Notes: a model not told the origin generated them from the sequence alone. Shown: positions 3,455-51,646, counted from the stretch's first letter. The stretch is DNA of 64,000 nucleotides from Verrucomicrobiota bacterium (GCA_018648805.1 JABGQM010000013.1:20067-84066); one strand, 5' to 3'. Made by a program: numbers and translations.

Positions 3455-3526
3455 GGCCTCGCGCTCGGCGAGCGCGGGCTACATCAGACCCCTTCTCTGT
3501 AGCCCGCTCTCGCCGAGAGCGAGGCC
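3455..3526. repeat. REP-like palindromic element copy 1 (intergenic, GH4 / PDZ-protein)
   Basis: ggcctcgcgctcggcgagcgcgggctac - 17 nt - gtagcccgctctcgccgagagcgaggcc. The arms are near-perfect reverse complements. Confidence 0.85.
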
Positions 3527-15289: not shown

Positions 15290-16369
15290 TCATTCTGGCG
15301 TCCCCATCGTTGCTGCATGATTCTCTGCCAGTAGTCGCGCCAGCATTCCGCCGGGGGTGACGTGGGGCGTGAAGAGAGAACTGCCCTGGTCGATCACAAA
15401 GCGGTTCCTCTGCTCTGCGGCCGCGAGATCGCCATCGCGGTTGCGCATCTCCAGCACGAGCATCCGATTCTCCTGAAGGGCCTCAGCGAATCCGGGCGCG
15501 TAGCCCGCGCGCTCAAGATCCCAAGCCGGGCAGGCGATTACGCGCTTCTTGTGCTTCAGGAGCCAGGCGAGAATCTCTTTCTCCTTCGGGGAATGCCAGC
15601 CACCCAGGTAAACATCCGCTTCAGGCAGATTGCCGATGTGCGGGGCGTTGCGGCTGCAGAGTACGCCAAGGGTTTCCGCATTCCAAAGGGCGGGATTCCC
15701 AATGCCGCGCAACCCATTGCCAAAAGTCTGCACGCATTTCCACGGGTTCATGCGGATGTATTGGGCAATCTTCTTCTCGGCCTCGGCAGAGCGCACAATC
15801 ATTTCATAATAATTGCGGTGCCAGATTTTCTTTTTGAACGGCGGAAATCTTCCGGCCTTCACGCCCTGAATATAGGCGTGCGTGGAGCGCGATTTGAAAG
15901 CGCAGATGAAATCGCCCAGCCCTTTTTCGCCCTTTTGAATTCGGATCAGCGCATGAAAATGATCAGGCATAATGCAATAAGCTAAGAGCGAGGGCGAAGG
16001 CGCAGAAGGGGCAGAATGCGGGGAAAGAGGGGGAAGAGGGGAAAGAGGGGGAAGAGGGGCAGACACAAGGCCTGCCCGTACGGGCGCGCCTTGTGTGCGC
16101 CCCTCCCCAGAGCGCTCCTCCCCAGAGCGCTCCTCCCCTGAGCGCCCCTCCCCAGAGCGCCCCCTTCCTGCGCCTTGGGCCTCTAGAGCAATTTCTTCCC
16201 AGATGAGAATCAGGATTTCTTTCGCCCCCTCAGCCGCAAAAATATCGCCCGCCTCCCGATGCGCGCAGAGGGTGATGAAATAGGTTCCTCCGCCGGCATA
16301 ATCATGCCCTTTGAGCCGAATGCTTCGGCGGTGATGCTTTTGGGGATCATAGGTCATTGAGGCGGCCAA
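15290..16369 (-). CDS. REP-associated tyrosine transposase (RAYT, IS200-like HuH Y1) with an internal low-complexity insertion and a C-terminal DprA/SLOG-like Rossmann domain
   Basis: HDYAGGGTYFITLC (beta1), YCIMPDHFHALI (HuH) and WHRNYYEMIVRS (catalytic Tyr) match the RAYT/IS200 pattern. The C-terminal ~140 aa (GVLCSRNAP...VIACPAWDLE...EQRNRFVIDQGSSLFTPHVTPGGMLARLLAEN) resemble DprA motifs (IVGSRNAS; RRNRII..SG.LITAR). A continuous 359-aa ORF. Confidence 0.65.
   Translation of the reverse strand: MAASMTYDPQKHHRRSIRLKGHDYAGGGTYFITLCAHREAGDIFAAEGAKEILILIWEEIALEAQGAGRGRSGEGRSGEERSGEERSGEGRTQGAPVRAGLVSAPLPPLSPLPPLSPHSAPSAPSPSLLAYCIMPDHFHALIRIQKGEKGLGDFICAFKSRSTHAYIQGVKAGRFPPFKKKIWHRNYYEMIVRSAEAEKKIAQYIRMNPWKCVQTFGNGLRGIGNPALWNAETLGVLCSRNAPHIGNLPEADVYLGGWHSPKEKEILAWLLKHKKRVIACPAWDLERAGYAPGFAEALQENRMLVLEMRNRDGDLAAAEQRNRFVIDQGSSLFTPHVTPGGMLARLLAENHAATMGTPE
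15985..16175. repeat. Repeat-rich in-frame insertion inside the RAYT gene: GA-rich tandem repeats, a 34-bp near-palindrome, and CT-rich tandem repeats
   Basis: 16019-16060 (gaggggaaagaggggga)x2; 16063-16096 acacaaggcctgcccgtacgggcgcgccttgtgt (contains the perfect 12-bp palindrome gcccgtacgggc); 16101-16170 (ctccccagagcgctc)x4. It encodes GRGRSGEGRSGEERSGEERSGEGR...LPPLSPLPPLSPHSAPSAPS between the beta1 strand and the HuH motif. Confidence 0.8.
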
Positions 16370-17274: not shown

Positions 17275-20153
17275 CACCTCTCCTCGTGTGCCAAACGCCA
17301 TGCATTCAACTGCTCATGAAACTGCTTGTAGATACTCAAGTGCTCCTCGCGTGCGGGCTGCTGGGAGCGCCGCCGCGTTTGCGCCGCCTCATCCTTGCGA
17401 CCCAGCGCCTCCAGAATGATCGCCTTGATCGCCCATAGCTCGGTCAGAATGTCATCCGGCTCCTTCACGGTCACCGTTGCCGCGTCCTTGCGCCAATGCT
17501 CGATCCCCTTACTCCGCCGGCCCCGATAGTAGCGCAATTTACGCGCATCAATCGCCTTATCGATGCACTCCAGCGCCCCGTCCCAATCCTTGAGTGCCAT
17601 CTGGGCCAGCGCGCCACCATGATGCCGCGGGGCACGCCACCCGTAACGCTCCGGTAGAAATGGAAGGAAGGGACCCGCAAAGGTGCGTGCCGCCAGCGTG
17701 TAGTCGCCCGCCGTCAACGCACGGTACGCCAGCTGGATATCACTGATCTCGATGTGGACCTTCATGGCCAGCGTAACGGCAAAGGGGAAACCGAACTCCG
17801 ACTTGTAGACGAGCCCTGAGCAATGCCAGGCAACGGTTCCGTCGCGGCGCAACAGGAAGACATTGGGCAGGCGATCGGCCGACAGAATCCCCAACTGCTG
17901 CACCATCGGATTATCCAACCCACCGGGAACCATGGCGGCAGCGCAGCTCCATTCGTTCGTCTTCATCAGCCGCTCGACCCGCTGCGCATCGTCGGTCAAA
18001 AAGGCCAGGCGTACATCGACCTCTTTGTTCACATGCTGATCGGCCAAGCTCAATGCACTGCTCACCACGCCCCTGACGTAATCACGCAATTGAAAAACAT
18101 ATTTGGGCACGAAGCCCTTCTTGCCCTGCACCACCGCGAAATCTGCTTCAGACTCGGGGGGCGGCTCGATAAAGAGCAGCAGCGTCAGACGGCCCTCTGT
18201 GTCATCCGGCAGGGAGAGAGCGCTGCCATCGAGATTCTTGAGTTCACACTTCGGGAAGGGCACCGCGTTGGTATTCCATCCGTGATTGACGATATGAGCA
18301 CGGCTCCATCCCATGCGGTCGCCACGCGTGCTGTTGGGCTTCAGCAGGTAGAAACGGTGGTAGCGGTTGAGGAGAAATGAGCGCACGCCCCACATGGGAT
18401 GTGCGCTGTCGGCCAGCAATGCCAGCGTCCGGGTGCGGTACTCCTCATGCAGCTCCCGGCTATTGGCTTCCAGCGCCAGAATCGCTGCGGCGGCCAGTGC
18501 CGATGCCGGTGCCGCATCGCCCCCCGATGCCTCGACCAGCTGTCGGATTTCTCGTTCGGCATGGGGACCTTCTTCGCGAAAAGAAGCCTTGGCCAGACAG
18601 AAGCGCGCCACCACGCCCTCGGCCGGCGATACCTTTGCCGCCAACACGGTGTTCGCCTCCTGCACCGCCTGCTCCAAATGCGCGGGGTCACAAGCCAGAT
18701 TCCACATTCCCAGCAGGGCAATGATTCGCCGGTTGCGTACCAGCCACAGTTCCGGCGCGTTGGCGTGTTGCTTGATGGCCTCACCGCACAGCTTCTCAGC
18801 CCTCTGGTAGTTCGCCATCGCCTCTTCGCGCGTCAGTCTGTAACGGAACGGTGGCGGAGTGAAGCACGCTTGGATAGCGCGGAGTATCTCATTGGGCTCC
18901 GCTCCTGCTGGCCTCGCGCTCGGCGAGCGCGGGCTACTTTGGAGCCCGCTTCCCTGTAGCCCGCTCTCGCCGAGAGCGAGGCTCTCTGAGGGCGCATTCG
19001 GTGCCACCGGATCGGCCACCAGGAAATCCCCAATAAACAACGACTGCAGCTGAGCCAAGTAGCGGTCGTGCGACAGGCGTGCCTCGCTGATCTTGAAAAT
19101 TCCGCCGTCAAGACTCATCACCCCCACGTTCGAATCCGGGTTGACCCCGAACGGATTCAGCACCGTGTAGCCGAAGGCGTTGACGAACAGGGCGTTGGGG
19201 TTGGCACCGCCATAGGCTTGATAGGCCACATTCCGTTCACCCTCCGGCAAATGCATGGCGTGCCAGTCCAGTCCCATCTTGCGCAGCACCTTTTCGCCGG
19301 CATCAGGTAGCTCATCGAGATTGAAGCTGTAGACTTCAAAGGCCCCCGGGAAGAGCTCCTGCTGCTCTTTAACCTGCTGCATGAAGCGCTCAATACCAGA
19401 GCTCTCCTGCGACCAGTAGACCAGCAGGCACTGATGCCCGATGCGGTCACCCGGAATGTAGAGGGTGGTGCCATCGGAACGCTGATAGCTCCCTTTGCAT
19501 TTCACGGCCAGCGACTTCAGACTCAGCACGTTACGGCGAAATGCGATGACTTCAGGATTGCCTGCGCAGCGCTCGTCCATGGATCGCTCTATGAAGTAAT
19601 CCAACTCGCCTGAGTCAAGGTCCTTCGCGATCGTCGCCCCGATCATCAGGCTCTTGGGCTCCGCCGACGTGCCGCGGTAGCGTATGATCAATGCTTCCAG
19701 AGCCTCTGCCCGCTCCTCAAGCGAGGCGTCACTATTGGACTGATCCCGCTCCGACAGCAGCAGGTCGGCTTCGAGCCTGACGCCTGCCCATTCATCCGGC
19801 GCCTGCATCAACTGAGTGCAAATATCATACAGGACCTCCCGGTTACGGTCGGTTCTCTCCAGCGTCAGCACCACCTTCTGGTTCTGGAGCATCATGCCTA
19901 ACAGCTGAAACCGTTTGGGGTCGTCGGGGTGGCTTTCAAGAAGCTTGTCTCCCCCACGGACCACACGCTTGCAGGCCCGTCGCTGCTCGGCAGAACCCGG
20001 CTTGCCTGCTCTGGCCTTCTGACTCGCCGCTTGCAGGGCGGCCATCTCAGCAGCGGGAACGGGAGCGGCACCGAACGCAGCAGGCAGCAGCGCCAGCAGC
20101 AGCGCCAGCAGACAGGCGCCCCGTATCAAAACATCCATGGCCCGAGTCAGCAT
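17274..20153 (-). CDS. Secreted protein A: N-terminal helical region plus two TlpA/thioredoxin-like domains lacking CxxC (paralog of 22350..25346); carries an in-frame REP element
   Basis: Signal peptide MLTRAMDVLIRGACLLALLLALLPAAFGAAPVPA. TlpA-like fold pattern ELKNLDGSALSLPDDTEGRLTLLLFIEPPPE...LPNVFLLRRDGTVAWHCSG, with IEPPPE in place of WCxxC. 959 aa. Confidence 0.55.
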   Translation of the reverse strand: MLTRAMDVLIRGACLLALLLALLPAAFGAAPVPAAEMAALQAASQKARAGKPGSAEQRRACKRVVRGGDKLLESHPDDPKRFQLLGMMLQNQKVVLTLERTDRNREVLYDICTQLMQAPDEWAGVRLEADLLLSERDQSNSDASLEERAEALEALIIRYRGTSAEPKSLMIGATIAKDLDSGELDYFIERSMDERCAGNPEVIAFRRNVLSLKSLAVKCKGSYQRSDGTTLYIPGDRIGHQCLLVYWSQESSGIERFMQQVKEQQELFPGAFEVYSFNLDELPDAGEKVLRKMGLDWHAMHLPEGERNVAYQAYGGANPNALFVNAFGYTVLNPFGVNPDSNVGVMSLDGGIFKISEARLSHDRYLAQLQSLFIGDFLVADPVAPNAPSESLALGESGLQGSGLQSSPRSPSARPAGAEPNEILRAIQACFTPPPFRYRLTREEAMANYQRAEKLCGEAIKQHANAPELWLVRNRRIIALLGMWNLACDPAHLEQAVQEANTVLAAKVSPAEGVVARFCLAKASFREEGPHAEREIRQLVEASGGDAAPASALAAAAILALEANSRELHEEYRTRTLALLADSAHPMWGVRSFLLNRYHRFYLLKPNSTRGDRMGWSRAHIVNHGWNTNAVPFPKCELKNLDGSALSLPDDTEGRLTLLLFIEPPPESEADFAVVQGKKGFVPKYVFQLRDYVRGVVSSALSLADQHVNKEVDVRLAFLTDDAQRVERLMKTNEWSCAAAMVPGGLDNPMVQQLGILSADRLPNVFLLRRDGTVAWHCSGLVYKSEFGFPFAVTLAMKVHIEISDIQLAYRALTAGDYTLAARTFAGPFLPFLPERYGWRAPRHHGGALAQMALKDWDGALECIDKAIDARKLRYYRGRRSKGIEHWRKDAATVTVKEPDDILTELWAIKAIILEALGRKDEAAQTRRRSQQPAREEHLSIYKQFHEQLNAWRLAHEER
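18910..18982. repeat. REP-like element copy inside the protein A coding frame
   Basis: ggcctcgcgctcggcgagcgcgggctac...gtagcccgctctcgccgagagcgaggc is translated in-frame as ESLALGESGLQGSGLQSSPRSPSARP. Confidence 0.85.
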
Positions 20154-22349: not shown

Positions 22350-25346
22350 TTATCTGATCTCCTTTGCAACGATACTCATTCTCTCTTCAAAAACTTCATA
22401 GGGTTCATTGAACCCGCGTATGCGACTGTAGTGGGTCGGATAATGGGTGGGCTTTACAGCGGCCTTGTTGCGAGCGGTTCTCGCTTCGGAACTACGACCC
22501 AGACCATCAAGCGCCTTGGATCGTGTGGTCTGCAGATGCAACATCGTGGTGCACGGATCTTCAGGATCGTGGTTGAACTGCCCTTTCCTGAGATGCCAGG
22601 CGATCGCGCTATCGACATCTTCCAAGGCAGCTTCATACTCCTTCAGGCCCAGATGGGCCAGGGCCCTACCATGGTAGCGCGAGGCCTTCCATTTGCTGGA
22701 GACCTCGTGTTGCGGCAGAATCGGTGTGTCCGCTTCGACCTTCTCGAGATAGGTGCCGGAGAAGAGCTGGACGGCCTTCTCGTACGCCTTTGCCTTCAAG
22801 GCTCGATATCCCGCTTCCGTGTCGACCCCATGGACCTGGGCCTCCCACGCGAGGGCACTGATGTGGGCAAACTTGCCAGACATCTGATAGGGCAGACCAT
22901 TCTTCTTCCAGGCAATGGTGCCATCCCGCCGGACAAGGAAGGAGTTGACATTCCGGTCGGCCGACAGAATCCCCAGCTGATTCACCACCGGGTTGCTCAG
23001 CCCCCCCGGGAGAATCGTGACCAGCCCCGGAAGGCCATACTTGTCGCGAATGGCCTTCACCATAGCGACATCATCGCTCAGGAAAACGGTCACGCACTGA
23101 AGACCGTTGTTATGCCTTCTGGCAAACCCGTAGGCACTGCCGAGAATACCGCCGGGCTGCGGGTTTTTGTTCTTCTTGGTCGCTTCGCCGGGCGGGGCGT
23201 AGATCGCGCGGGCCAGTTCATTGCTGCCATCGGAAGACGGTTCAACGAACAGCAACAGAGTCAACCGCTCACGCTTCGTGTCGGGGAGCGACACCGTCTT
23301 GCCATCCAGGTTCTTCAAATGAATCTCTGGAAGCGGCAGCGTCACCGGGGTGAGACCCACATCAATCATGTGGCGGCGTTCCGTGAATCGGTACTCGCGG
23401 GAGTAGAGATAGAAAATCGGGTTGCCGCGAAAGAGGTAGTACTGGTGGTAGCGGTCGCGCAGGAAGGCAACGAACGGGGCGATATCCTGCGACTGCGCGT
23501 CCGACACCAGAATCATGTCGCGGCACTGATGGTAAAGCTCCCGTGAGTCGGCATGGATAGCGAGGATGACCGCCGCGGCGTGTGTCTTCAGGCCCGCCTT
23601 CTCTCCGCCGCAATCCGCAACAAACCCCTCTACGATCACTTTCGCGCTGGCGTCCCCTTGGCGCAGCGCCGCTTTGGCCAGACAGAAGCGGGCGACCACC
23701 CCTGCCCCATCAGGGAGATCCAAACCAACCGTCGTGCGCGCCTCCTTGACGGCGTCCGGGAAATGCGTGGGCGATCCGCTGATGTTGGCCATCCCCATCA
23801 GTGCAATGATGCGATAGTTGCGCACCCGCCACAGATCCGACGCTTTGGGAGTGGCCGCAATCGCCTTGACGCAGAGGTCGTTCGCCTTCTTGTATTGGGC
23901 CAGTGCTTCGGCCTTGGTTAGGCGGTAGCGCTGTGGGATGGGCAGGAAGCAGGCGCGGATCGCCTTGAGCGTGTCAGCAGGCACGGCTACTGCCGGCCTC
24001 GCGCTCGGCGAGCGCGGGCTACTTTGGAGCCCGCCTCCCTGTAGCCCGCTCTCGCCGAGAGCGAGGCTCTCTGAGGGTGAATCAGCCACGAGCAGATCGC
24101 CGATCAGCAGCGACTGGATCTGGCTCAAGTGCCGGTCGTATTCGCCATAGCTGGCAACGTGACCGGTGGGCACCAGTCGCGGATAGGCAAACTCGTCATA
24201 CACGCTGGAGTGGGCGAATTCCTTGGCCTCTTCTGCGTTCTTGAAGTGGATCGCCATGCTGGGCGGCACAATGGCGTGGCCGAAGTGGTTGACCCGCAGC
24301 GCCGCGGGCATATGCAGCGCATAGGTGCGGAAGGTCTCGCTCTGCACACCGCCCGCCAACCGTAGCACGGTGCACGCTAGCCCAACCGACTTGATAATGG
24401 ACGCCCCAGCATCGGGCAGCTCGTCGACATTGAAGCTGTAGAGCTCCAACAGCCCCGGCGCCTCATCCTGCTGCTGCTTGAGCTGCTTGAGTTTCGCCAG
24501 CGAGGCCTCCGAATCCTTCGACCAGAAGACCGCATAGTAGGCGTGTCCCAGACGGTCATAGGGAAAAGTCATGGTACTGCCATCGAGGCGCTCGAACCTA
24601 CCGGAAAAGACAATATCCATCCGGGTGGCGCCGATCAGCGTACGCCGATAGTTGATGGCAGTCGGGTTTTCGGCGAACCGTTCGCTCAGGTCTGTGACCA
24701 GCTGTTCCTTGAAATCATAGTCACCCAGCTGGGTTGCGAGGCGCACGGCCGCCATCAGAAACTCAAGTTCGCCCGCTGTATCGCGGTAGCGCAGCCGCAT
24801 CTCTGACAGCGCCTTGATGCGCTCCGCCGCATCGGCGTCGCGCGCCGAAAGATCCCGCTCGGAGAGCATCAGCTCGGCATTGAGCCGATAGCTGCTGTAT
24901 GCATCGGGGGCCTCTCTCAACGCCTTGCAGGTCGCAAAGAAGGCCTCCCGGTTGCGTTCGGTGTTCTCCATCTGAAGCAGGCGCTGCTGCGCCTTCAGTT
25001 GGAGCGCGAGCACAGGAAACCGATTGGCCGCATCCGGCTGGGCCCGCACCAGAGCCTGCGCATCGCGGATCACGCCCTTGCACATGCGGCGCTTGGTGGA
25101 GGACGAGGCGCGGGAGGTCGCAAGGGCGGCGAGCTCGGCCTGGAGTGGGTCGAGGGACGCTTCGGGGATGAGCGCGGGCGATTGTGCCGCTGCCGGCAGC
25201 ACAGCAAGCATTAGCGAGAAGCCCAGGAGGAGAGAGCCGAGAGCTCTCGATAGAGCGTTGATTGCTGTCGATTGCTGCCGACTGCTGCCGACAGCTGTCG
25301 ATTCTAGACTCTCCCCATTCGGAAATCGACAATCGGAAATCGGCAT
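22350..25346 (-). CDS. Secreted protein B: paralog of protein A (double Cys-less TlpA-like domains), with an in-frame REP element and a 10-bp tandem repeat in its 5' coding end
   Basis: Collinear similarity to A, for example RLTLLLFVEPSSDG and NVNSFLVRRDGTIAWKKNGL. The same REP-encoded block ESLALGESGLQGGGLQSSPRSPSARP sits at the same relative position. The ATG is coupled 5 nt after the upstream gene stop with an AGGTAGAGAA RBS. Confidence 0.55.
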   Translation of the reverse strand: MPISDCRFPNGESLESTAVGSSRQQSTAINALSRALGSLLLGFSLMLAVLPAAAQSPALIPEASLDPLQAELAALATSRASSSTKRRMCKGVIRDAQALVRAQPDAANRFPVLALQLKAQQRLLQMENTERNREAFFATCKALREAPDAYSSYRLNAELMLSERDLSARDADAAERIKALSEMRLRYRDTAGELEFLMAAVRLATQLGDYDFKEQLVTDLSERFAENPTAINYRRTLIGATRMDIVFSGRFERLDGSTMTFPYDRLGHAYYAVFWSKDSEASLAKLKQLKQQQDEAPGLLELYSFNVDELPDAGASIIKSVGLACTVLRLAGGVQSETFRTYALHMPAALRVNHFGHAIVPPSMAIHFKNAEEAKEFAHSSVYDEFAYPRLVPTGHVASYGEYDRHLSQIQSLLIGDLLVADSPSESLALGESGLQGGGLQSSPRSPSARPAVAVPADTLKAIRACFLPIPQRYRLTKAEALAQYKKANDLCVKAIAATPKASDLWRVRNYRIIALMGMANISGSPTHFPDAVKEARTTVGLDLPDGAGVVARFCLAKAALRQGDASAKVIVEGFVADCGGEKAGLKTHAAAVILAIHADSRELYHQCRDMILVSDAQSQDIAPFVAFLRDRYHQYYLFRGNPIFYLYSREYRFTERRHMIDVGLTPVTLPLPEIHLKNLDGKTVSLPDTKRERLTLLLFVEPSSDGSNELARAIYAPPGEATKKNKNPQPGGILGSAYGFARRHNNGLQCVTVFLSDDVAMVKAIRDKYGLPGLVTILPGGLSNPVVNQLGILSADRNVNSFLVRRDGTIAWKKNGLPYQMSGKFAHISALAWEAQVHGVDTEAGYRALKAKAYEKAVQLFSGTYLEKVEADTPILPQHEVSSKWKASRYHGRALAHLGLKEYEAALEDVDSAIAWHLRKGQFNHDPEDPCTTMLHLQTTRSKALDGLGRSSEARTARNKAAVKPTHYPTHYSRIRGFNEPYEVFEERMSIVAKEIR
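23995..24067. repeat. REP-like element copy inside the protein B coding frame
   Basis: ggcctcgcgctcggcgagcgcgggctactttggagcccgcctccctgtagcccgctctcgccgagagcgaggc. Confidence 0.85.
25258..25303. repeat. Imperfect 10-bp tandem repeat (GATTGCTGYC x4) within codons 14-29 of protein B, followed by 2x CGGAAATCG
   Basis: gattgctgtc gattgctgcc gactgctgcc gacagctgtc. The unit length is not a multiple of 3. The same unit recurs at 39111..39142. Confidence 0.7.
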
Positions 25347-39142: not shown

Positions 39143-39151
39143 CTCTCCGCG

Positions 39152-40171
<1,020 letters not shown>

Positions 40172-40228
40172 TCTCTCTCCCTCACGCTTCATGCTATTGC
40201 TGATCACCTATTCGAGTGCCCTGCCTGA

Positions 40229-40301
40229 GGCCTCGCTTTCGGCGAAAGCGGGCTACAAAGAAGGCGCGTTCCTGTAGCCCGCTCTCGCCGAGAGCGAGGC
40301 C
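40229..40301. repeat. REP-like element copy directly upstream of moxR
   Basis: ggcctcgctttcggcgaaagcgggctacaaagaaggcgcgttcctgtagcccgctctcgccgagagcgaggcc. Confidence 0.85.
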
Positions 40302-40459
40302 CCACGGATAACTGATTCCATCGACCACACTTTGTCAGCACACAACCTAGTATGCCCAACGACGGCCACGAAAGGTGCTTTTGCGACAAACGCCCTGCTT
40401 CTTTGCGACAGATCAACACCTGTTCGCCTTGGTTGCTGCCACTCAGTGCTTCTCGACCG

Positions 40460-42121: not shown

Positions 42122-44565
42122 CACGCGTCTCCTTGATAGTGAACCCACCGCTTCGAGTAGCGCATCTGCAGCAGCGTCAAGACGAGCACCAGCACGAACA
42201 GAACCCAGGCCAGTGCGGACGCATACCCCATCCTGAAGAAACGGAACGCCTCATTGAAGATCTTGTAGGCGTAGAACAGGGTGCTGTTGACCGGTCCACC
42301 GTCGGTCATGACATAGGCCTGGTCAAAGATCTGGAAGGTGGCGATGAACCCCATGATCATGTTGAAGAAGATGTAGGGACTCAGCATCGGCAGCGTGATG
42401 GCAGAGAAGCGCCGCACGGCGCCCGCGCCGTCGATGCTGGCCGCCTCATACAGCGATTCGGGGATGGATTTGAGCCCGCCGAGCCAGATGACCAGTCCGC
42501 CGCCAGCGCTCCACAGTCCCATAATAATGAGGGCCGGCTTGGCCCACATCTCGTCCAGCAGCCATTTGGGTCCCACGATGCCAAACAGACTCAACGCCGT
42601 ATTCAAGAGTCCGCGATTCGGCTCAAACATCCAGATCCAGAGGACCGAGGAGGCCACCACCGGCATCACGGCCGGCATATAGAAGATCGTGCGGTAGACC
42701 GACATCCCTTTGAGTTCGCGGTGCAGCAGAAGCGCCAGACCGAGACCCACACCGAGTGATAGTGGCAGGCCGAGCAGCATGAACACCGTGTTGCCGAGGG
42801 CTTTGTAGAACAGCGTGTCGTTAAAAAGCATCTCCCGGTAGTTATCGAGCCCCACGACAACCGCCGGCGTAAACACATCGTAGGAGCAGAAGCTGATGAT
42901 CAGCGAGAACAGGATCGGGCCGCCACCGAAGATGATGAAACCGAAGATCCACGGTGAGGCACATAGAGCACCGTCCCACAATTCGCGGCGGAAGATCCCT
43001 TTGACGTGGCGGCCGCCAACCTTCCATATCACCATCCCGGCCACGGCGATCAGCGCGATATACAAACCGATGACAATCGGCCAGGGCGCCTCAGCACCTT
43101 GCGGCGGCTGTAGCACGCCATCCAAGTCACGCTGAACGATGGCCGTCCCCTTCTTCAGAGCCTCCTCCGGTATCAGCTTGTGGAAGAGCGCCGCCTCCAT
43201 GGCGTTGACATGTTCCTCCCAGAGGCGCTGGCCCACCGGGGTAACCGGCCGGAAGCGGCTGTGGGACAGCAGGGCGAGTATCTGGCTGTAGGCCTCTCGC
43301 AGTTCCGCGGGAATCTCGTGGGCGTTCGCGACATATTTCTCATACAACAGCCGCGAGGTCGCCCTGTTGGGGCTGTACCGGGGGATGTACATGCGTCCCA
43401 TGCTGCGCGCCTGCTGGGCACGGCGCGCGTGCAACATCATTTCCGCCTTCCGGGAAACCAGTGACTGGATCAGCATCCAGGAGGCCTCTGGGTTGCGCGC
43501 GGTCTTGGGTACGGAGAACGCATAGCCGCCGCTCCAGCTGATGGGCTCAGCCCCCTCATCGCTACGGCGCTGGGGAATCGGTGCCGGGGCCACGAGGAAT
43601 TCCATGTCAGGCTTGTAAGCAGCGATGGAGTCGAAACACCAGTTCCCATCGATCTTCATGGCGACCTGATCGTTGAGGAACGGGTCCAGCGGGCCGGTCT
43701 GCAACGACTGCTGGAACGCGTATACCTCCTGTACGCCGCCCAGCGCGTCATAGACGTCGACCATGTACTCAAGCGCCTCCACGACCTCAGGGGAGTCCAT
43801 CGTGCAGGTTTGGCCATCCTCGCTCATGAAGCGGGCACCGTTCATCCAGCCATACAGGTACAGCCAGGCATTGCCGAAGTTGGGCGCGAAGCCAAGCGTC
43901 TTGATGCCGCCATCAGGATGCTTGCGAGTGAGCTTGATCGCGTAGGCCTTCAGTTCGGCCCAGTTCTGCGGTGGCCGCACGTCGCCGGCCCTGGCCTTCC
44001 CGGCCTTCACCTGCGGCTCGTCGGCCTTCCAAACATAGCCCGCGCGACGCAGCAGGGCCTTGTTGCAGTAGAGCGCACGGTTGTCGATGCTGTGCGGGAT
44101 ACCGTAGCAGCGTCCGCGGTAGACCGTTTCGTCCCAGGCGGCGCTGAAGTAGTCCTCGCGCTGAATACCGTCGGGGCTGTCCTGGTCCCGTGCGAGAAAG
44201 GCATCCAGCGAGAGAAAGGTGCCCCGTGCCGCCCATTCGGTGATGGCGAAACGGTCGTAGAAAATGACATCCGGCGGCACGCCACCCGCGGTACCCAGGA
44301 GGAAGCGCGTCGGATCGCCGGTCAGGTTACGCACCGACGCCGTACCACTGATCACGCGATACGCCGGGTTCTCGCGCTCGAAGTGTTCCACCACCGGACG
44401 GTAGTCTTCGATCTGCTCAGGGCTGGCAAACCAGATCGAGATCTCGGTGCGGGTATCCCGTTCCCACTTCACATGCAGCGTCAGGAATCCCGCGACAAAC
44501 AGGCCTACAATCAGACAGACAATGGCATTCGATCGCAGCCATGTGATAGGAGCATGCATAGACAT
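42121..44565 (-). CDS. Fusion protein: membrane-anchored extracellular solute-binding protein (SBP family 1) fused to an ABC permease (MalF-like)
   Basis: An N-terminal TM anchor, then ~450 aa of sugar-SBP-like sequence (WFASPEQIEDYRPVVEHFERENPAYRV...), then six TM helices with the EAA region EAASIDGAGAVRRFSAITLP. One 814-aa ORF. Confidence 0.65.
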   Translation of the reverse strand: MSMHAPITWLRSNAIVCLIVGLFVAGFLTLHVKWERDTRTEISIWFASPEQIEDYRPVVEHFERENPAYRVISGTASVRNLTGDPTRFLLGTAGGVPPDVIFYDRFAITEWAARGTFLSLDAFLARDQDSPDGIQREDYFSAAWDETVYRGRCYGIPHSIDNRALYCNKALLRRAGYVWKADEPQVKAGKARAGDVRPPQNWAELKAYAIKLTRKHPDGGIKTLGFAPNFGNAWLYLYGWMNGARFMSEDGQTCTMDSPEVVEALEYMVDVYDALGGVQEVYAFQQSLQTGPLDPFLNDQVAMKIDGNWCFDSIAAYKPDMEFLVAPAPIPQRRSDEGAEPISWSGGYAFSVPKTARNPEASWMLIQSLVSRKAEMMLHARRAQQARSMGRMYIPRYSPNRATSRLLYEKYVANAHEIPAELREAYSQILALLSHSRFRPVTPVGQRLWEEHVNAMEAALFHKLIPEEALKKGTAIVQRDLDGVLQPPQGAEAPWPIVIGLYIALIAVAGMVIWKVGGRHVKGIFRRELWDGALCASPWIFGFIIFGGGPILFSLIISFCSYDVFTPAVVVGLDNYREMLFNDTLFYKALGNTVFMLLGLPLSLGVGLGLALLLHRELKGMSVYRTIFYMPAVMPVVASSVLWIWMFEPNRGLLNTALSLFGIVGPKWLLDEMWAKPALIIMGLWSAGGGLVIWLGGLKSIPESLYEAASIDGAGAVRRFSAITLPMLSPYIFFNMIMGFIATFQIFDQAYVMTDGGPVNSTLFYAYKIFNEAFRFFRMGYASALAWVLFVLVLVLTLLQMRYSKRWVHYQGDA

Positions 44566-44590
44566 TCTGCTTTGTGACCCTTCTCGGCAG

Positions 44591-44663
44591 GGCCTCGCGC
44601 TCGGCGAGCGCGGGCTACAGGGACGCGGATTCTCTGTAGCCCGCTCTCGCCGAGAGCGAGGCC
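44591..44663. repeat. REP-like element copy (intergenic, esterase / transporter)
   Basis: ggcctcgcgctcggcgagcgcgggctacagggacgcggattctctgtagcccgctctcgccgagagcgaggcc. Confidence 0.85.
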
Positions 44664-44707
44664 GGATTCAACCCCACTCTCTACCCCAATTTCAGTCCCA
44701 TCACCTT

Positions 44708-46186
44708 CTACGGCGCGAAGAACGACTCCATCTTCGAGGTCGATTCAGGACCGGCGTCCCCAAAGTATTTATCGGCCAGGTCCACACGGCCCAGACTCTC
44801 CAGGTAGACGCCCGCCAGGGCTCGCGCGTCACGGTTGTCCGGCTTGAGCTGTGTGACGAGGACGGCCAGATTGGCGAAGTCGACCGGCTTGAGATCCGTG
44901 GACCTGATGGCGACGCTCTTCCCTGAGCCCGCGCTAAACGTCAAGCTGTTGGCGTCCTCGACCGACACCAGGGAAACCTTCGCCCGCGTCAGGCTCAGCG
45001 GGACCGCCTTGCCGGTGCGCAGCAAGCCGGCATCACTCACCTTCACCAGGGCCTTCATCATCGTGTGGTTAAGCAATTGGATCTTCATGGGCGACACGCC
45101 GCGTGCTTTGCGCAGAGGTGGCGCGGCCGTGCGGGATGTCGCGCTCTTGCGTCCCCCGCCCCCGCGGCTCTCCTCCAGCATCTCGGCCATGGCCCGCCCC
45201 ATGCCTTCACCAACATTCATGTAGGTTTCCGAGTTTCCGCCGTAGTGGCCGTTGGCACTACCGGGCTTGGAGACAGGGTTGGAATAGAAGGTGGCCACGT
45301 TGCCCTTGAACTCGGGGTGCTTTCCGCTCTTGCCGTCAACCGCGAGCTGGGCATCCGTAATGGTGCCACCAGCGCCGCCGCTCCCCTTCTGGGCCTGTCC
45401 CATGGTGGCACAGACGAAGAGGGCGTCCGGGGCATTGAAGTCCTTGCGCAGGTCCTTGATGAAATGGACGAGGTTCTCTTCATACTTGTCCGCATTGCCA
45501 CCTCGGCCCAGATCCTTGGCGCCCTGCCAGAAGCAGAATCCCGCGACTTCGAATGTCTTGGCGCCCGGGTAGTAGGTGCTCAGGTCCTCAAGGACCTCCT
45601 TGGCGGCTCTTGTGTCCCCGTCATACTGCACACCGGCATACCAGCCTCCCGGTTTCGGTGTTCGGGTGGGATCGCCCTTGTCCCCTTCATAACCGTCCGC
45701 GCTGGGTGGCAGAAGATCGTAGCCCAAACTGCGGTTGCCGATGCAGCTCTTCAGGATCAAGACGGGTTCGTCCAGCACCCGGCCGACATAGTGTCCGATG
45801 CCGACCTCCGGGCCGATGTGCTTGCCACTGATCGTCATCCACTCATTCTTGTAAGTCTTCCAGGGGCCGGAGCCGGAACACATGACCCGCACGTTGCGCA
45901 CGTCTTGGCGCACGGTCCAGTTGCCGGCATCATCCACAAGGTAGGGGTACAGCTGCTTATTCTTCACGGCGTTATCAAGTGATCCTTCGCCGCCGGCGAC
46001 CTTGCCGAAGCCCAGCATGTTTGACTGTCCGAGCAGGATAAACACCTGGACCGGCTTCCTCATGTCGGCCGGCTCGCCGTCCGGGTCAGGAAGCTCTGCG
46101 GGAAGTCCCACCGCCATACCGCTTAGCAGGTGACTCGCGATCACCGCAACGAGAAGACTCCATACGATTCTGGTCTGCGCTCTCAT
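44708..46186 (-). CDS. Sialate O-acetylesterase-like (SASA / SGNH-type) carbohydrate esterase with a C-terminal extension
   Basis: VFILLGQSNMLG (GQSN catalytic block). Start MRAQTRIVWSLLVAVIA, preceded by an AGGAGGGG RBS. The track ORF extends upstream into a REP element. Confidence 0.65.
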   Translation of the reverse strand: MRAQTRIVWSLLVAVIASHLLSGMAVGLPAELPDPDGEPADMRKPVQVFILLGQSNMLGFGKVAGGEGSLDNAVKNKQLYPYLVDDAGNWTVRQDVRNVRVMCSGSGPWKTYKNEWMTISGKHIGPEVGIGHYVGRVLDEPVLILKSCIGNRSLGYDLLPPSADGYEGDKGDPTRTPKPGGWYAGVQYDGDTRAAKEVLEDLSTYYPGAKTFEVAGFCFWQGAKDLGRGGNADKYEENLVHFIKDLRKDFNAPDALFVCATMGQAQKGSGGAGGTITDAQLAVDGKSGKHPEFKGNVATFYSNPVSKPGSANGHYGGNSETYMNVGEGMGRAMAEMLEESRGGGGRKSATSRTAAPPLRKARGVSPMKIQLLNHTMMKALVKVSDAGLLRTGKAVPLSLTRAKVSLVSVEDANSLTFSAGSGKSVAIRSTDLKPVDFANLAVLVTQLKPDNRDARALAGVYLESLGRVDLADKYFGDAGPESTSKMESFFAP

Positions 46187-46232
46187 CTTGCCCCTCCTGT
46201 TCCTGGCTCCTTGATTCTGCATACACCGCCCC

Positions 46233-46342
46233 GGCCTCGCGCTCCCCGCCAAGGCGGGGCAAGCGGCGAGTTCACCCCGCTCCGCGGGGCGCGGGCTACA
46301 AAGAATCCGCCTCCTGTAGCCCGCTCGCGCCGCGAGCGAGGC
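46233..46342. repeat. Long-variant REP-like element with nested palindrome CCCCGCCAAGGCGGGG
   Basis: ggcctcgcgctccccgccaaggcggggcaagcggcgagttcaccccgctccgcggggcgcgggctac - spacer - gtagcccgctcgcgccgcgagcgaggc. Confidence 0.85.
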
Positions 46343-46595
46343 AGGCTGAACCCGATCACTTCACCCGCAGGTGTACCAATCCCAGCGGCCATGGACGCCT
46401 ATCGGTCAGCGTTCTGGATCTCCCCATAATAGCGCCGACAATGACAGACCAGCCAGTGATAGATCGCGACATTGCGCCTGCAATTTTGCGACAGGGCAAG
46501 CCGTCAGACGCGGACGGAACAGTGTGTGCAGAGGGCTATCGATCTGCACGGACACGCTCAACATCTACCCGTCAACCGATCTCCGCTAACTCCAT

Positions 46596-49500
46596 TCACC
46601 CCCGACACAGGGCCGGGGGGATCTTAATACCGAATCCGGCAAGCGTGTAGTCGCCCTGCCCGTTGCCCCTGCGCTGACACGGATGCAGCGCGACGCCCAA
46701 GTTTCTGCGATGCGGTCCATATAGATTCTGGGCCGTATTGTGGAGGGTCAGCACGATCGTGTTCATGCCCTCAGCCAGGTGATCCGCCAGGCGGAAGCGG
46801 TACGGCGCCATGTAGCGACAGCCGACCTCGCGCCCGTTGACGGCGAAGGTCACGACCCCATCGACCTCCCCGCAATCGAGCCAGGCCGCGCCTTTGGCCC
46901 CATCGATCGTCGTTTCATAGCGCATCCCACCCCAATAGAACGGCCATCCCGATTCCACCAGATCGCCAAAGGCATAGCGCGGCGCGGTCAGCTGGGGGCG
47001 CATGCCGTCGTCGGTGGGCACCAAATCGACCCCGAAATCTCCCATCAGGTAGAACGGTTCAAACAGAACATCCCCGGCCAGACGCTGCATCGTGATCCGG
47101 TTCTCACCCGCCTGAATCAGCCCGACCACATCAACCACCACCAAGTCCTGGCTCGACGGATGCCGACCGGCTGCCGCCGGCAGGGGGATGCCATTGATGC
47201 GCATAGAGGAAAGGGTCACCGCCTCGCCGACGATGGCGGTGATCCTGTCAGGTCCGGAAACGTCAATGCGGACCACAAGCGTCTCCGGCTCACCCGCAAG
47301 TTGCTCGGTATGCGTCGCCTGCTCGCCATCCGGTCCTTCGCACCAATCGATCAGCATCAGGTTCGGCTGCTCGGCAGTGATGGTCCAGCGGGGGACGGCA
47401 AGGGCGGATTCCGTATGTCGGTGAGGGCTTCGCTCTCGGCGAGAGCGGGCCACATGGGGACCACTGTCGCCGGACGTGGGCTTTCCCGGCACATGCGCAC
47501 TGAACAGCGTCTCTTGCAGCGGCTTCACCACCACACCTTCCGGTAACTCCGGCAGTAGATGAACCGCATGGAATGGCGGCAATACCACCCCGACCGGGCT
47601 TGCCCCGAGCCCGCAACGCGCCACCCCCACCGGGCTTGCGTCCTGCCCGCACGCTCCCGCCCCCACCGGGCTTGCCCCGGTGGAGCGAAAGATCCCCACA
47701 TCCCCCGCCGGATCATACACATGCCACTCCCCACCCCACCCCACACGTTGCGGGCGGTCGGACATGTTGCAGATATAATGTTCCTTGCGTCCGCCAACCA
47801 CGCGCGTGTGACTGATAACGGGCGCGCCCGCCTCTTCTAGCTGCAGCTCAATCGTCGGTGTGAGGCCACACTCGCGCAGCGCCATGGGGGTGGCGATGGC
47901 CTCCGGAGAGAGCCTCGCTCCCGGCGAGAGCGGGCTACATAGAGACAACTCGCCGGCAGCACGAACATCCCCGAATACCGCCTGCGGCGGGACCACGCCA
48001 TCCACCCGACAGTCCCGCGCGGGATTGAGCGCGATGATCCTTCCGCCCGCAGCCTGGAACGCCTCGAGCAGCGCCACCGTGGTTTCAAGCAGGTTGCAGG
48101 TCTCGGGAATGATCACCGTGGTATAGCGCATGGCCCCCATCTGCAGTCCAGCGTCCTTCACGGCGCCGTGTTTGGCCAGCAGCCACTCATCGCCATACTC
48201 GAATCCTACCTGCAATTTAAGCAGCTCATGGGAGACGGCGGCCAACGACTCCTCCAACGCCCGCGGATCCGGCAGCGTCTCCTCGGTGCCGGTCTCGAAG
48301 GGATGGCCGATGCTGCAGCTGCGCCCATCCATCGCAGTCCAGCAGGCGGACATCGGGTGGATCACAAGGGCGCTCGCGTCATAGGTTCCGCGCGTGAGCA
48401 GCTGCGTACTGCGGGCGATGGCATCGTGAAACCGCTTGTACTGAGGCCAATAGGGTTGCTGGAAAAAGTAGCTCGGCGGGCAGTCCCGCTTGGCCACCCC
48501 GCCCGTGGCGTAGCTGAAGGCGTGATGGACCATCAGGTTGACCCCCAGGGCGAGCTCGTAGTTCAGGAAGGCCGACTGCCCCCACATCGACGCACCCCAC
48601 CCCAGAAAGGTGAGCACCTCGCAACTGCAGGCACCGTCCTTCAACTGGTTGGCCACCGACGAGGCCTGCTTGAAAAGGATCACCGGACAGTGCCCCTGCC
48701 CGTTGCGCAGTTGGTCGAGGTAACACCCGCTGGAAACAGAACAAAGGAAGTCGTCGATGCCGGGGATATGCTCGTGCTCGTAGAAAGCCATCGCCGAGCC
48801 GAAGCGCTGGACCGACTTTGTGATGTCTCCCTCATCCCCACTCAGATGACCGGTAAAGCGGACCCCATGCTCGTCGCACCAGCGGTACATGGGATCGACG
48901 AACTCATTGAGAAAGAGATCGAGCACCAGCCCCCGGTAATCGAGCCGGACCTCTTCACGGCCGGGCAGCGCCTCGATAAGCGCCGGGAGATGATCCAGCA
49001 GACTGTAGCCCAGTCGTGCTTCGAAGATTTGTGGCAGCCGTTCGGTCCACGGCAGACTGGCTTCACGATCCAGGTAACTGTTCAGATCATCCGTGTAGAG
49101 ATGGGTGATGGGGTTGCCGAAGAACTCCTTGAGCTCGCGAAAGTAGACCTCGTGGGTCATCGCGATAAAGCGATCCGCCGTTTCCCGCTTGAGCGTGTCG
49201 ACGTAGCGTGGCAGGCGCGTCATCCAGAACGCGAGCACCTCCTGGTCCGGCGCAACATGCTCCACACTGAGTCGCTCAAATCCGACGGCATCATACACCG
49301 CCACCAGGTCCTGTATCCTGTCGAGTTCCGCGACCCGCTGATAGCCATAGCAGAGCAGTTTCTGCTGGTAGAACGGATCGTCCTTCTGCAGGCGATGCCC
49401 GACCGTGCCGCTGGGGAACCCCTCTTCGTCGTAGAGCCAGATCTCCAGTCCCAGCCGGCGGGCCTCCTCGCAGGTATGGCGCATCAGCGCAAGCCAGCGC

Positions 49501-49712
49501 GTCGACATGTAGTCGGTCTGGTTGCCCTCCCGCGCGTGCACGGTCATGCCTCTCAGACCCCCTGCCGCCGCCAGTTCAAGCTGACGGGAGATCTCCTCCT
49601 CCCGCTGATCCCCGTTCCAGAACCAGAACGGAACGGCGCCATTCGCGCGTGTATTGAATTCAATCATCGGTAGCGGTGCCGCTCTCCTCTTGTCCTCCGC
49701 GATCGTCTTCAT
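46596..49712 (-). CDS. Putative glycoside hydrolase (uncharacterised family; N-terminal TIM-barrel-like region with FWFWNG block, C-terminal beta-sandwich) containing REP-derived in-frame segments
   Basis: Start MKTIAEDKRRAAPLPMIEFNTRANGAVPFWFWNGDQ, preceded by an AAGGA RBS. A continuous 1038-aa frame reads through two REP half-sites and a 30-bp tandem repeat. Family assignment is tentative. Confidence 0.45.
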   Translation of the reverse strand: MKTIAEDKRRAAPLPMIEFNTRANGAVPFWFWNGDQREEEISRQLELAAAGGLRGMTVHAREGNQTDYMSTRWLALMRHTCEEARRLGLEIWLYDEEGFPSGTVGHRLQKDDPFYQQKLLCYGYQRVAELDRIQDLVAVYDAVGFERLSVEHVAPDQEVLAFWMTRLPRYVDTLKRETADRFIAMTHEVYFRELKEFFGNPITHLYTDDLNSYLDREASLPWTERLPQIFEARLGYSLLDHLPALIEALPGREEVRLDYRGLVLDLFLNEFVDPMYRWCDEHGVRFTGHLSGDEGDITKSVQRFGSAMAFYEHEHIPGIDDFLCSVSSGCYLDQLRNGQGHCPVILFKQASSVANQLKDGACSCEVLTFLGWGASMWGQSAFLNYELALGVNLMVHHAFSYATGGVAKRDCPPSYFFQQPYWPQYKRFHDAIARSTQLLTRGTYDASALVIHPMSACWTAMDGRSCSIGHPFETGTEETLPDPRALEESLAAVSHELLKLQVGFEYGDEWLLAKHGAVKDAGLQMGAMRYTTVIIPETCNLLETTVALLEAFQAAGGRIIALNPARDCRVDGVVPPQAVFGDVRAAGELSLCSPLSPGARLSPEAIATPMALRECGLTPTIELQLEEAGAPVISHTRVVGGRKEHYICNMSDRPQRVGWGGEWHVYDPAGDVGIFRSTGASPVGAGACGQDASPVGVARCGLGASPVGVVLPPFHAVHLLPELPEGVVVKPLQETLFSAHVPGKPTSGDSGPHVARSRRERSPHRHTESALAVPRWTITAEQPNLMLIDWCEGPDGEQATHTEQLAGEPETLVVRIDVSGPDRITAIVGEAVTLSSMRINGIPLPAAAGRHPSSQDLVVVDVVGLIQAGENRITMQRLAGDVLFEPFYLMGDFGVDLVPTDDGMRPQLTAPRYAFGDLVESGWPFYWGGMRYETTIDGAKGAAWLDCGEVDGVVTFAVNGREVGCRYMAPYRFRLADHLAEGMNTIVLTLHNTAQNLYGPHRRNLGVALHPCQRRGNGQGDYTLAGFGIKIPPALCRG
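47424..47456. repeat. REP half-site (left-arm-like) inside ORF 46596..49712
   Basis: gggcttcgctctcggcgagagcgggccacatg, read in-frame as ...HVARSRRERSPHR... Confidence 0.7.
47588..47680. repeat. ~30-bp tandem repeat x3 (core CCCCACCGGGCTTGC) inside ORF 46596..49712
   Basis: ccccgaccgggcttgcccc... / cccccaccgggcttgcgtcc... / cccccaccgggcttgcccc, encoding ASPVGAGACGQDASPVGVARCGLGASPVGV. Confidence 0.7.
47911..47940. repeat. REP half-site inside ORF 46596..49712
   Basis: agcctcgctcccggcgagagcgggctacat, read in-frame as ...SLCSPLSPGARLS... Confidence 0.7.
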
Positions 49713-49733
49713 GTCCTTCGCGCTCGTCCTTGT

Positions 49734-49761
49734 GTAGCCCGCTCTCGCCGAGAGCGAGGCC
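49734..49761. repeat. Truncated REP element (right arm) immediately upstream of the 46596..49712 start and RBS
   Basis: gtagcccgctctcgccgagagcgaggcc, preceded by a degenerate left arm ccttcgcgctcg. It ends about 20 nt before the ATG. Confidence 0.8.
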
Positions 49762-49812
49762 GACCGGTCCGGTGGAGGCAAACGCTGCGTGTTCGATGTT
49801 CGAAAGAAGGGG

Positions 49813-51573
49813 CTACTTGGCTCCGGTGATTTGCAGGACACGCCGGGGGAGCGAGAGTATCAGTGCGGCATTGGCGCTGGCCATGGTGTGGGGGCCGTAG
49901 TTCTTATTGGCACCCGTCGGCCGGTCGCGGTTGGGGCAATTCAGATAGCTGCCGTCGTGGGTCTGCTGCATGATAAACCACCACTTGACGCCGTCCATGA
50001 AGGTTCTGAATTTCGCCTCTTCGGCACGCGATGCGCCTAGCCCGACCCACAGATGATGCATGCCGGCGGCCGCGTGTCCGTCAAACCAGGTGCCATAGCC
50101 CAGCGCGCAGCTGTTGCCACAGTGCCGGCCCAGGTGCTGCCATGAGGTGTCATTGTTCCCGATCGAATGCGCCAGTGCGCCTAGCCCGACGGGTGCCTGG
50201 GCGTGCCCTCTGGTCGTCTTGTAGGGCGCGGTGGGTTCGGGGAGCGTCAACGCGCGCACCACGATTCTGGAGGCCGGCTGATTCTTGAAGCCCATATAGA
50301 CCTCATTGGAGTCTTTCTCGTTCGCAACCCATGCAGTGTCATTGCCCGCCGGACCGAGGTGGATCTTGCGATTCTCTTTCGGCGTCGGCCAGCCAATGGT
50401 GTAATTGCCGATATTCTTCATCCCGGTCGGGACCCTGAACCCCGGGCCCTCATCGCTCCTGGCCCGCGTCGGATCTTTCAGTGTGATGGCCGCATGATCC
50501 GGCGATGCCGGGAAGCAATAGGTGATACCGACCACATCCGGGGTTGCGGAACGAAGGTACGACTGGTGCAAGCTCTCGTGGGTGCGCACCGCATAGTCGA
50601 CACCAGCGCCCTTGAACACGCTCATCGCCAGCATAGACAGCCCCGCGGGAGCGGCCATCGCGCCATAGCCTTTGGAGTTTACCGTCCACATCGCCGGTGT
50701 CGGTCTGTGCGAGTAGGCCCCGCGTCCGTAATTCATGGCGTCTTCATAGAACTGAGCCAGCTTCTTCATGGCCGGCAGGACGCTCGCGTCCCCGGTCAGC
50801 TTATAGTATTCACCCAGAATAATGCCGCTATAGGCGTTGGCCCAGCTGGACTTGCCGTCTCGGCGCGCGTCGGGATTGCCCGCAACCAGTTTGGCGATGT
50901 ATGGCTTGATGATCGGATCGTACTTCTTGTCGCCGCTGGCCATTAGCGCCAGGATCATGTGCGAGGGTGTGTAGCCGCCCTTGCTCGCATCCTTGCGGTT
51001 GAAATCACTGGCCAGGTAGTCGTAGAGGTCGCTTACCAGCTTCTCCGAACGCTTGCAGTTGTACGGGAAGGTCGGCGAAAACCGGCCCACCGCTTCAATC
51101 TGAACCGTGACCGTCTTCTGTGCGTCCTGCTTGCCGCCGGGCCAGATGATCAGCTCAAGCTTGCCGTCCTTGCCCTGGCTATCCTCGATCAGCTTGGCCA
51201 TATCCACCAGCGGGCCATCCCAGCTTTTGGAGCTCTTCGCAAAGCTGTGCGGCCGGGTCAGCATGGTGCCATTGGCCCCGACAATGACATCGTTGATAGT
51301 GACCTTGCCAGTTGCCGGGGAGTCCTTGAACACATAGCGCACCGTGAAGTAGTGGGGCTGTTCGGTGGTGATCTGGGCGCGGATACCGGTCGGTCCCACC
51401 GGCAGGTACCAGGACGTCCCGATCGCGTCGAACATCTCCTTCTCCTGCCAGGTAGTGCGGCCCTTCTTCCAGGGGTAGTCGCCCCGCTGCCGCAGTGCCA
51501 GCGCATCGCGGCACGTCAAACCCGCCACCAGCATCACCATCACCACTCCGAGACTCGCCTTGGCTCGTTTCAT
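49813..51573 (-). CDS. Secreted PDZ-like / alpha-alpha-toroid-like protein (paralog 3 of 3, shortest form)
   Basis: Start MKRAKASLGVVMVMLVAGL (signal peptide). Blocks shared with the other two paralogs: FPYNCKRSEKLV, GEYYKLTGDASVLP. 586 aa. Confidence 0.55.
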   Translation of the reverse strand: MKRAKASLGVVMVMLVAGLTCRDALALRQRGDYPWKKGRTTWQEKEMFDAIGTSWYLPVGPTGIRAQITTEQPHYFTVRYVFKDSPATGKVTINDVIVGANGTMLTRPHSFAKSSKSWDGPLVDMAKLIEDSQGKDGKLELIIWPGGKQDAQKTVTVQIEAVGRFSPTFPYNCKRSEKLVSDLYDYLASDFNRKDASKGGYTPSHMILALMASGDKKYDPIIKPYIAKLVAGNPDARRDGKSSWANAYSGIILGEYYKLTGDASVLPAMKKLAQFYEDAMNYGRGAYSHRPTPAMWTVNSKGYGAMAAPAGLSMLAMSVFKGAGVDYAVRTHESLHQSYLRSATPDVVGITYCFPASPDHAAITLKDPTRARSDEGPGFRVPTGMKNIGNYTIGWPTPKENRKIHLGPAGNDTAWVANEKDSNEVYMGFKNQPASRIVVRALTLPEPTAPYKTTRGHAQAPVGLGALAHSIGNNDTSWQHLGRHCGNSCALGYGTWFDGHAAAGMHHLWVGLGASRAEEAKFRTFMDGVKWWFIMQQTHDGSYLNCPNRDRPTGANKNYGPHTMASANAALILSLPRRVLQITGAK

Positions 51574-51646
51574 CGTCTTTTTCTCTTTCTTGTTGCAATA
51601 GGGTACCGGGAAGCACTCAGCGCACGCCACACTACTCAATTCCGGC

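Follow-up and report, generated by a model that had tools for sequence, protein, structure and literature searches.

Repetitive extragenic palindromic (REP) sequences of the GTAG superfamily, which terminate on one side in an unpaired GTAG (or GTRG) tetranucleotide, are also found inside genes. These intragenic copies were catalogued by Di Nocera et al. in 2013 and were most numerous in the verrucomicrobium Opitutus terrae, in which some open reading frames (ORFs) carry two REPs and dimers encode 20-30 amino acids (PMC3733652). The classic in-frame palindromic insertions are the Rickettsia palindromic elements (RPEs), whose added peptide was judged to be compatible with the fold of the host protein (review PMC10969869). 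Here, we analysed a 64,000-nt stretch of DNA from a Verrucomicrobiota bacterium (GCA_018648805.1, JABGQM010000013.1:20067-84066; hereafter the window), in which a large glycosidase-like ORF reads through two REP units and a tandem repeat. This locus is very probably a single, functional-looking gene for a GH106-like multi-domain glycosidase with three lineage-specific in-frame insertions, two of which are REP singlets. The inserts are present, lie in frame and in loops, and are absent from homologues; the REP forms a hairpin, and REPs are intragenic elsewhere too.

The glycosidase gene and its inserts

The gene occupies 46596..49712 on the minus strand as one intact ORF of 1038 amino acids beginning with an ATG at 49712, as judged from the ORF list, translation, Pfam, homologues and a structural model. 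The stop-to-stop ORF extends to 49841 (46596..49841, GTG start, 1081 amino acids). The original prediction had the ORF continuous through REP-derived segments at 47424-47456 and 47911-47940, and this was confirmed: both 28-nt units, placed at 47427-47454 and 47912-47939, are in frame, and no stop codon was found across them and the tandem repeat or elsewhere in 47424-47940. An identical 1038-aa product was encoded on a separately deposited ENA metagenome contig with one mismatch in 8863 nt to the window. The G+C content was 60% overall and 0.67/0.46/0.77 by codon position. Five of the six frames of one REP unit are free of stops as read from its sequence, so read-through of a single unit is unremarkable alone. 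Three lineage-specific insertions that all keep the frame, in a gene collinear with its homologues on both sides of them, are more than chance would give.

Part of the protein matched Pfam PF17132 (36.3 bits; cut-off 29), and NCBIfam AlphaRhamBT4145 gave a weak GH106-type match (82 bits; cut-off 1300). The best PDB matches found by Foldseek were the GH106 rhamnosidases 6q2f and 5mqm (E: 1e-28 to 1e-32), followed by GH42- and GH164-type enzymes. The earlier guess of a TIM-barrel-like N-terminal and a beta-sandwich-like C-terminal region was thus roughly right, with GH106 as the closest fold. Based on these weak profile matches and the fold, the glycosidase appears to be GH106-like and is a putative member of this family.

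A database search returned 158 homologues, of which the closer ones, more than 100 in number, were 900-1000 aa long and covered 94-99% of the glycosidase. In an alignment with 18 homologues, both flanks of each insert were collinear and well conserved, and the inserts were gaps in all 18, including the closest full-length homologue (P0002), which was 66-70% identical. The stretch between the inserts is conserved in homologues (e.g., HTRVVGGRKEHYICNMS...YDP...LPPFHAVHLLP) and is therefore no spacer. Likewise, a transposed cassette lying between the two REP singlets was ruled out because this region is conserved in homologues.

The AlphaFold2 model, built on a 66-sequence alignment, showed one compact multi-domain protein with a mean predicted local distance difference test (pLDDT) score of 90.9 and a predicted template modelling (pTM) score of 0.92. 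Only residues 1-8, 679-703 and 743-768 fell below a pLDDT of 50, and residues 581-600 scored 65-70; the N-terminus aside, the low-confidence stretches were exactly the three inserts. Meanwhile, the conserved beta-sandwich at residues ~604-731 scored mostly above 90. The proposal that 47424-47940 was a single inter-domain linker filled with repeat debris therefore did not stand, because this stretch encodes the conserved beta-sandwich and the inserts occupy three separate places.

Specifically, insert 1 (47916..47966, minus strand) adds about 17 amino acids (VRAAGELSLCSPLSPGA, residues 583-599) that are a gap in all aligned homologues, and lies in the coil between the alpha/beta domain and the beta-sandwich, with edges ambiguous by a few residues. 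REP unit 1 (47912..47939, minus strand), with its GTAG head first on the coding strand and one mismatch to the consensus, encodes CSPLSPGAR (residues 592-600), and its RNA hairpin was calculated at -16.8 kcal/mol. Insert 2 (47585..47679, minus strand) is the tandem repeat, defined by Tandem Repeats Finder and by the gap in homologues, and adds about 28 amino acids at residues ~677-708 (ASPVG x3). It lies in the beta-hairpin loop that joins the beta-sandwich strands 672-675 and 708-711, with a pLDDT below 50 for residues 679-703. The insert 3 region (47409..47486, minus strand) is a hypervariable linker (residues 743-768, pLDDT below 50) that joins the beta-sandwich to the C-terminal jelly-roll domain and varies in length and sequence in every homologue in the alignment. 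It holds REP unit 2 (47427..47454, minus strand), a GTGG head variant with two mismatches to the consensus, which encodes VARSRRERS (residues 754-762) and has an RNA hairpin of -14.6 kcal/mol (z: -3.1). Peptides spanning the junctions would be ...GELSLCSPLSPGAR... and ...HVARSRRER....

For insert 2, the coordinates and the threefold ASPVG given by the original prediction were right and its 30-bp period was wrong, since Tandem Repeats Finder gave a period of 36 nt with 2.6 copies and 80% matches. The idea that this repeat was also REP debris was rejected: its motif GCAAGCCCGGTGGGG had no further occurrence in the 264 kb examined (the window and 39 metagenome contigs with an exact REP unit, none overlapping the window), which rules it out as another dispersed repeat, and its last copy matches native sequence in the alignment with homologues (SPVGVVLPPF vs SPELVLPPF in P0002). 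The most plausible reading of insert 2 is that loop sequence native to the gene was duplicated in place long ago, in multiples of 36 nt and probably by slippage.

The REP family and its copies in other genes

In the window, the 17-nt palindromic core CGCTCTCGCCGAGAGCG (up to three mismatches) was found at 14 sites with 28 strand matches, compared with 0.71 expected, and none of 100 shuffles reached this number. The 28-nt unit GCCTCGCTCTCGGCGAGAGCGGGCTACA was present in 15 copies at 10 sites with up to five mismatches (about 0 expected in 64 kb). Each unit forms a G+C-rich hairpin that has a stem of 7+3 bp and leaves a GTAG head unpaired; nearly all variants end in ...GGGCTACA (other strand TGTAGCCC), and the unit at 47427 has GTGG. 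The 264-kb sample contained 96 units in 18 sequence variants, over which 97.8% of the stem cells were paired and compensatory double changes occurred at five of ten pairs, a covariation that no shuffle matched. The canonical dimer is 71 nt long and head-to-head (28 + 15 + 28), and dimers fold as a single long hairpin (-58 to -64 kcal/mol; z: -6.6 to -8.5). Among GTDB representatives, the exact unit was found in only one, a Victivallales metagenome-assembled genome (MAG), where it was intergenic. No Rfam family matched the REP, and integron attC sites (no GTTRRRY cores) and CRISPR repeats (irregular spacing) were ruled out from the sequence.

REPs also interrupt other genes in frame. A 72-nt head-to-head dimer (18911..18982, minus strand; LALGESGLQGSGLQSSPRSPSARP) lies in a gene of 959 aa (17274-20153), and a near-identical 72-nt dimer (23996..24067, minus strand) lies in frame at the homologous site of a 998-aa paralogue (22350-25346); both encode LALGESGLQG[SG]GLQSSPRSPSARP. 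The homologues of these paralogues are single proteins of 900-1000 aa, and the dimer falls in their hypervariable linker. A 91-nt block containing the dimer and short flanks (18899-18990 and 23984-24075) was 99% identical between the two genes, which are 5 kb apart, whereas the flanking DNA was about 60% and the proteins 38% identical; moreover, the spacer variant of this block was unique to these two copies. In P0128, an orthologue of a window paralogue, a related REP-like peptide occupies this site. A protein-database search with the peptide encoded by the REP dimer gave no candidates, which says little about how many proteins bear REPs.

Outside the window, unrelated metagenome contigs contained at least five genes in which Pfam domains flank an in-frame REP. 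These REPs included a singlet at residues 221-230 of a pectate-lyase-like beta-helix protein (L009 3510-3537), a 63-nt dimer between the DUF4982 and C5 domains of a GH2 enzyme (L023 2548-2610), and units or dimers in three PMT_2+TPR membrane proteins (L019 2783-2810, L025 2250-2365 and L030 1739-1806). The last three proteins were 45-66% identical and carried their REPs at a common loop just past a conserved YDY[IV]F motif. A truncated partner unit was visible beside the REP in L019, so decay from a dimer does occur elsewhere. As for the glycosidase singlets, alignment of the head-side flank with a partner unit did not show significantly that they are decayed head-to-head dimers (129 and 1189 of 2000 shuffles did equally well).

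In total, four of the 10 sites in the window and at least five of roughly 40 elsewhere were intragenic. Of 16 distinct presumed-intergenic dimers, 11 were 71 nt long and only one had a length divisible by three; the intragenic dimers measured 72, 72, 63 and 68 nt. This suggests a filter on the reading frame, with numbers that are small and two 72-nt copies that are not independent.

The intergenic copies in the window include a singlet without mismatches (49733..49760, minus strand) located 21 nt upstream of the glycosidase ATG and downstream of a DUF6288 gene, and a dimer past the glycosidase stop (46234..46342) made of a long unit with a nested palindrome of ~45 nt and a short unit. Additionally, head-to-head intergenic dimers were found at 3456..3525, 40230-40300 and 44592-44662. 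A diverged singlet (22293-22320; five mismatches, with compensated GCTTGGCAAGC stem changes) falls within the first 20 codons of the ORF 20260-22350, the ATG of which overlaps with the stop codon of the paralogue upstream; this ORF may in fact start further downstream, and the singlet would then be intergenic. The long variant, in which a nested palindromic insertion of about 45 nt sits in the loop of the 28-nt hairpin (CCCGCCAAGGCGGGGCAAGCGGCGAGTT.ACCCCGCTCCGCGGGG), was seen in at least three places (window 46234-46303, window 22203-22271 and L025 ~2250-2320), once intragenic.

A gene for a Y1 (HUH) transposase resembling the REP-associated tyrosine transposases (RAYTs) is located at 15290..16369 on the minus strand, 31 kb from the glycosidase gene, and was recognised by PF01797 and by its HUH and YIxxNP motifs. 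It scored 67 bits against NF047646 (cut-off 80), or 77 bits with an insert removed. This palindromic, in-frame insert of about 195 nt (15990-16183) separates the first helix from the HUH strand and consists of 15-nt tandem repeats (EGRSGEERSGEERSGEGR ... PLPPLSPLPPLSP); at the C-terminus, the protein is extended by about 150 aa. The surrounding genes (2008-16369 and 33399-52780) concern glycan degradation, including GH4, GH95, a sulfatase, a WbsX-like protein, a SASA esterase and three PDZ-containing DUF6288 proteins. In addition, a BatA/MoxR/DUF58/VWA operon and an ATP-binding cassette transporter with fused solute-binding protein and permease were found, and nearly all genes are on the minus strand.

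Explanations for the inserts

The three insertions are best explained as follows. A GTAG-tagged REP, usually present as a 71-nt head-to-head intergenic dimer, would have spread via single-stranded DNA, presumably by means of a RAYT-type Y1 transposase, and the third insertion is a tandem duplication, with a period of 36 nt, of the gene's own loop sequence, as replication slippage produces. Within coding DNA, an insert would survive only if its net length were a multiple of three, if its frame were read without a stop, for which five of the six REP frames qualify, and if it fell in a surface loop or inter-domain linker tolerating 10-30 extra disordered residues. Such a filter would place the inserts where homologues vary and where the model is disordered. 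The mode of mobilisation, the neutrality of the inserts and the expression of the protein are inferred. The earlier claim that the spread of REPs had altered coding sequence is thus supported, in the form of a single gene with in-frame REP insertions.

Several points weigh against this explanation. The ENA contig may come from the same or a similar sample and so may not be independent, and the enzymatic activity and the expression of the glycosidase are predictions. No closely related empty-site allele was found for the glycosidase inserts, which leaves the insertion boundaries, the target sequence and any target-site duplication undefined. Moreover, the RAYT-like gene narrowly misses the NCBIfam cut-off and has no unit of this REP within 2.5 kb, so that its connection with the repeat is circumstantial and the gene is a candidate for the mobilising enzyme. 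Finally, REPs at homologous sites of diverged paralogues and homologues are not readily explained by random insertion followed by filtering; possible causes are gene conversion, a preference for these sites and long-term retention.

The shared sites raise the idea that, in this lineage of the Planctomycetes-Verrucomicrobia-Chlamydiae (PVC) superphylum, REPs or REP doublets forming hairpins (REPINs) are more than passively tolerated in genes: they would be targeted again and again to corresponding linkers of diverged paralogues and homologues, or homogenised there by REP-mediated gene conversion. We consider this unlikely. If true, REPs would systematically generate new loops and linkers and would serve as substrates for recombination within coding DNA; in any case, the recurrent occupancy of homologous sites in paralogues poses a small question about REP targeting or gene conversion.

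A related possibility is that the intragenic REPs persist because they serve a function, for instance as an mRNA structure that controls translation or decay, as a site of recombination or gene conversion, or as a selected flexible linker, and are targeted to or conserved at their sites. The 99% identical REP block in paralogues with 38% protein identity, the REP loop shared by the three PMT_2+TPR homologues and the related peptide at the same site in P0128 are consistent with this, as is the reading frame, LALGE[SR]GL, that the first units of all verified intragenic dimers have in common. However, the host proteins are mutually unrelated, the sites are simply the most indel-prone linkers, the sample is small with a paralogue pair that is not independent, and published surveys argue against functional constraint (PMC3733652). 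A maintained function therefore appears quite improbable.

It is also very unlikely that the gene is a decaying pseudogene, disabled by its insertions and open only for want of time. Three insertions within 520 nt, and REP units that differ from the consensus by one or two mismatches and so may be recent, would fit such decay. Against it, three indels preserving the frame would be a 1-in-27 event without selection, and the gene otherwise looks functional: the protein retains all 30 invariant columns of the 66-sequence alignment, the inserts avoid every secondary-structure element of the model, and the coding signature of G+C at the third codon position is intact.

An assembly artefact, in which short-read metagenome assembly created or mis-joined the REP units or the tandem tract, is extremely improbable. 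A partial protein (P0001, locus tag HN700_15865) from an NCBI MAG confirms the unit at 47912 and stops inside the tandem repeat. Its contig ends within the 36-nt tandem repeat (window ~47670) and its final 21 residues are unrelated, so short-read assembly seems to break, or to form a chimeric end, in the tandem tract. This break, and the coverage of only about 4.5x of the ENA contig, speak for an artefact. However, the two sides of each REP continue one protein that is collinear with homologues, a 28-nt repeat is below the typical k-mer length of assembly, the full ORF is identical in the second assembly, and the tandem copies are only about 80% alike, which does not fit the collapse or expansion of a perfect repeat.

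Two adjacent genes (about 46596-47400 and about 47960-49712) with a REP-rich spacer accidentally open in frame, the alternative offered by the original prediction, might be suggested by the mostly intergenic position of REPs, by their five stop-free frames and by a G+C content of 60% that favours long chance ORFs, but this reading is refuted by the homologues and the model: all full-length homologues run continuously over the region rather than as separate halves, the supposed spacer is the conserved beta-sandwich with a pLDDT above 90, the model is one compact protein, and no promoter- or terminator-like site was found within the gene.

The single gene with three in-frame insertions offers a clear, structure-checked example of how small palindromic mobile repeats can extend large enzymes at their loops and linkers and leave them intact, in poorly studied, uncultured marine PVC bacteria. 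For work with MAGs, REPs and the tandem tract matter as break points of assembly. Moreover, they can mislead gene callers and domain annotation, as seen for the RAYT-like match, which fell from 77 to 67 bits when split.

Comparison with known repeat systems

By its defining features, the REP of the window fits the GTAG superfamily (PMC3733652) and is REPIN-like (PMC3116915, PMC3337134). It is a short stem-loop palindrome with a head tetranucleotide and a dispersed, mostly intergenic distribution in high copy number across the DNA examined, as expected of GTAG REPs. Its dimers are inverted REP pairs with a short spacer that form a single long hairpin, as in the REPINs of Bertels and Rainey (2011). 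The REP resembles the catalogued GTAG REPs in its G+C-rich hairpin, its GTAG/GTGG head, the predominance of head-to-head dimers and the location of most copies between genes of the same direction. In both cases, a minority of copies lie in frame within genes, as singlets or dimers adding about 10-30 aa, in a PVC-superphylum host (PMC3733652). Unlike the published cases, the hosts are uncultured marine Lentisphaerota/Verrucomicrobiota-like MAGs, and the proteins affected are glycan-degrading and TPR proteins instead of products of DNA-repair genes. The sequence family appears to be different as well.

The REPIN/RAYT system of Pseudomonas and the REP and bacterial interspersed mosaic elements (BIMEs) of E. 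coli (PMC3116915, PMC3337134, PMC3333891) resemble the window in their inverted REP pairs with a short spacer and a long hairpin, in their numerous copies and in a Y1 HUH transposase that goes with them as a single-copy gene, for which the RAYT-like gene is the candidate here. However, those REPs are described as essentially extragenic and the RAYT gene is flanked by its own REPs, whereas in the window roughly four of 10 sites fall within genes and this REP does not flank the RAYT-like gene.

The likeness to RPEs lies in palindromic repeats inserted in frame within unrelated protein genes (PMC10969869). RPEs, in contrast, are families of about 100-150 bp or short CGTC-tagged forms in reduced intracellular genomes. 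RPE-1 is about 150 bp long and encodes a conserved peptide, and the CGTC-tagged class includes the short RPE-4 and RPE-6, whereas the REP of the window belongs to the GTAG class (PMC3733652). A 28-nt GTAG-tagged unit in a PVC organism is thus no RPE and is RPE-like in behaviour only. As for the enzyme, the multi-domain fold of the GH106 alpha-L-rhamnosidases (BT_0986, 5mqm; Novosphingobium, 6q2f) is the best PDB match of the glycosidase, which is only 11-14% identical to them with a template modelling score of about 0.5.

This case leaves established REP biology unchanged. Intragenic GTAG REPs and RPEs are already known; what is new is the host lineage and, apparently, the sequence family, documented here with a structural model.

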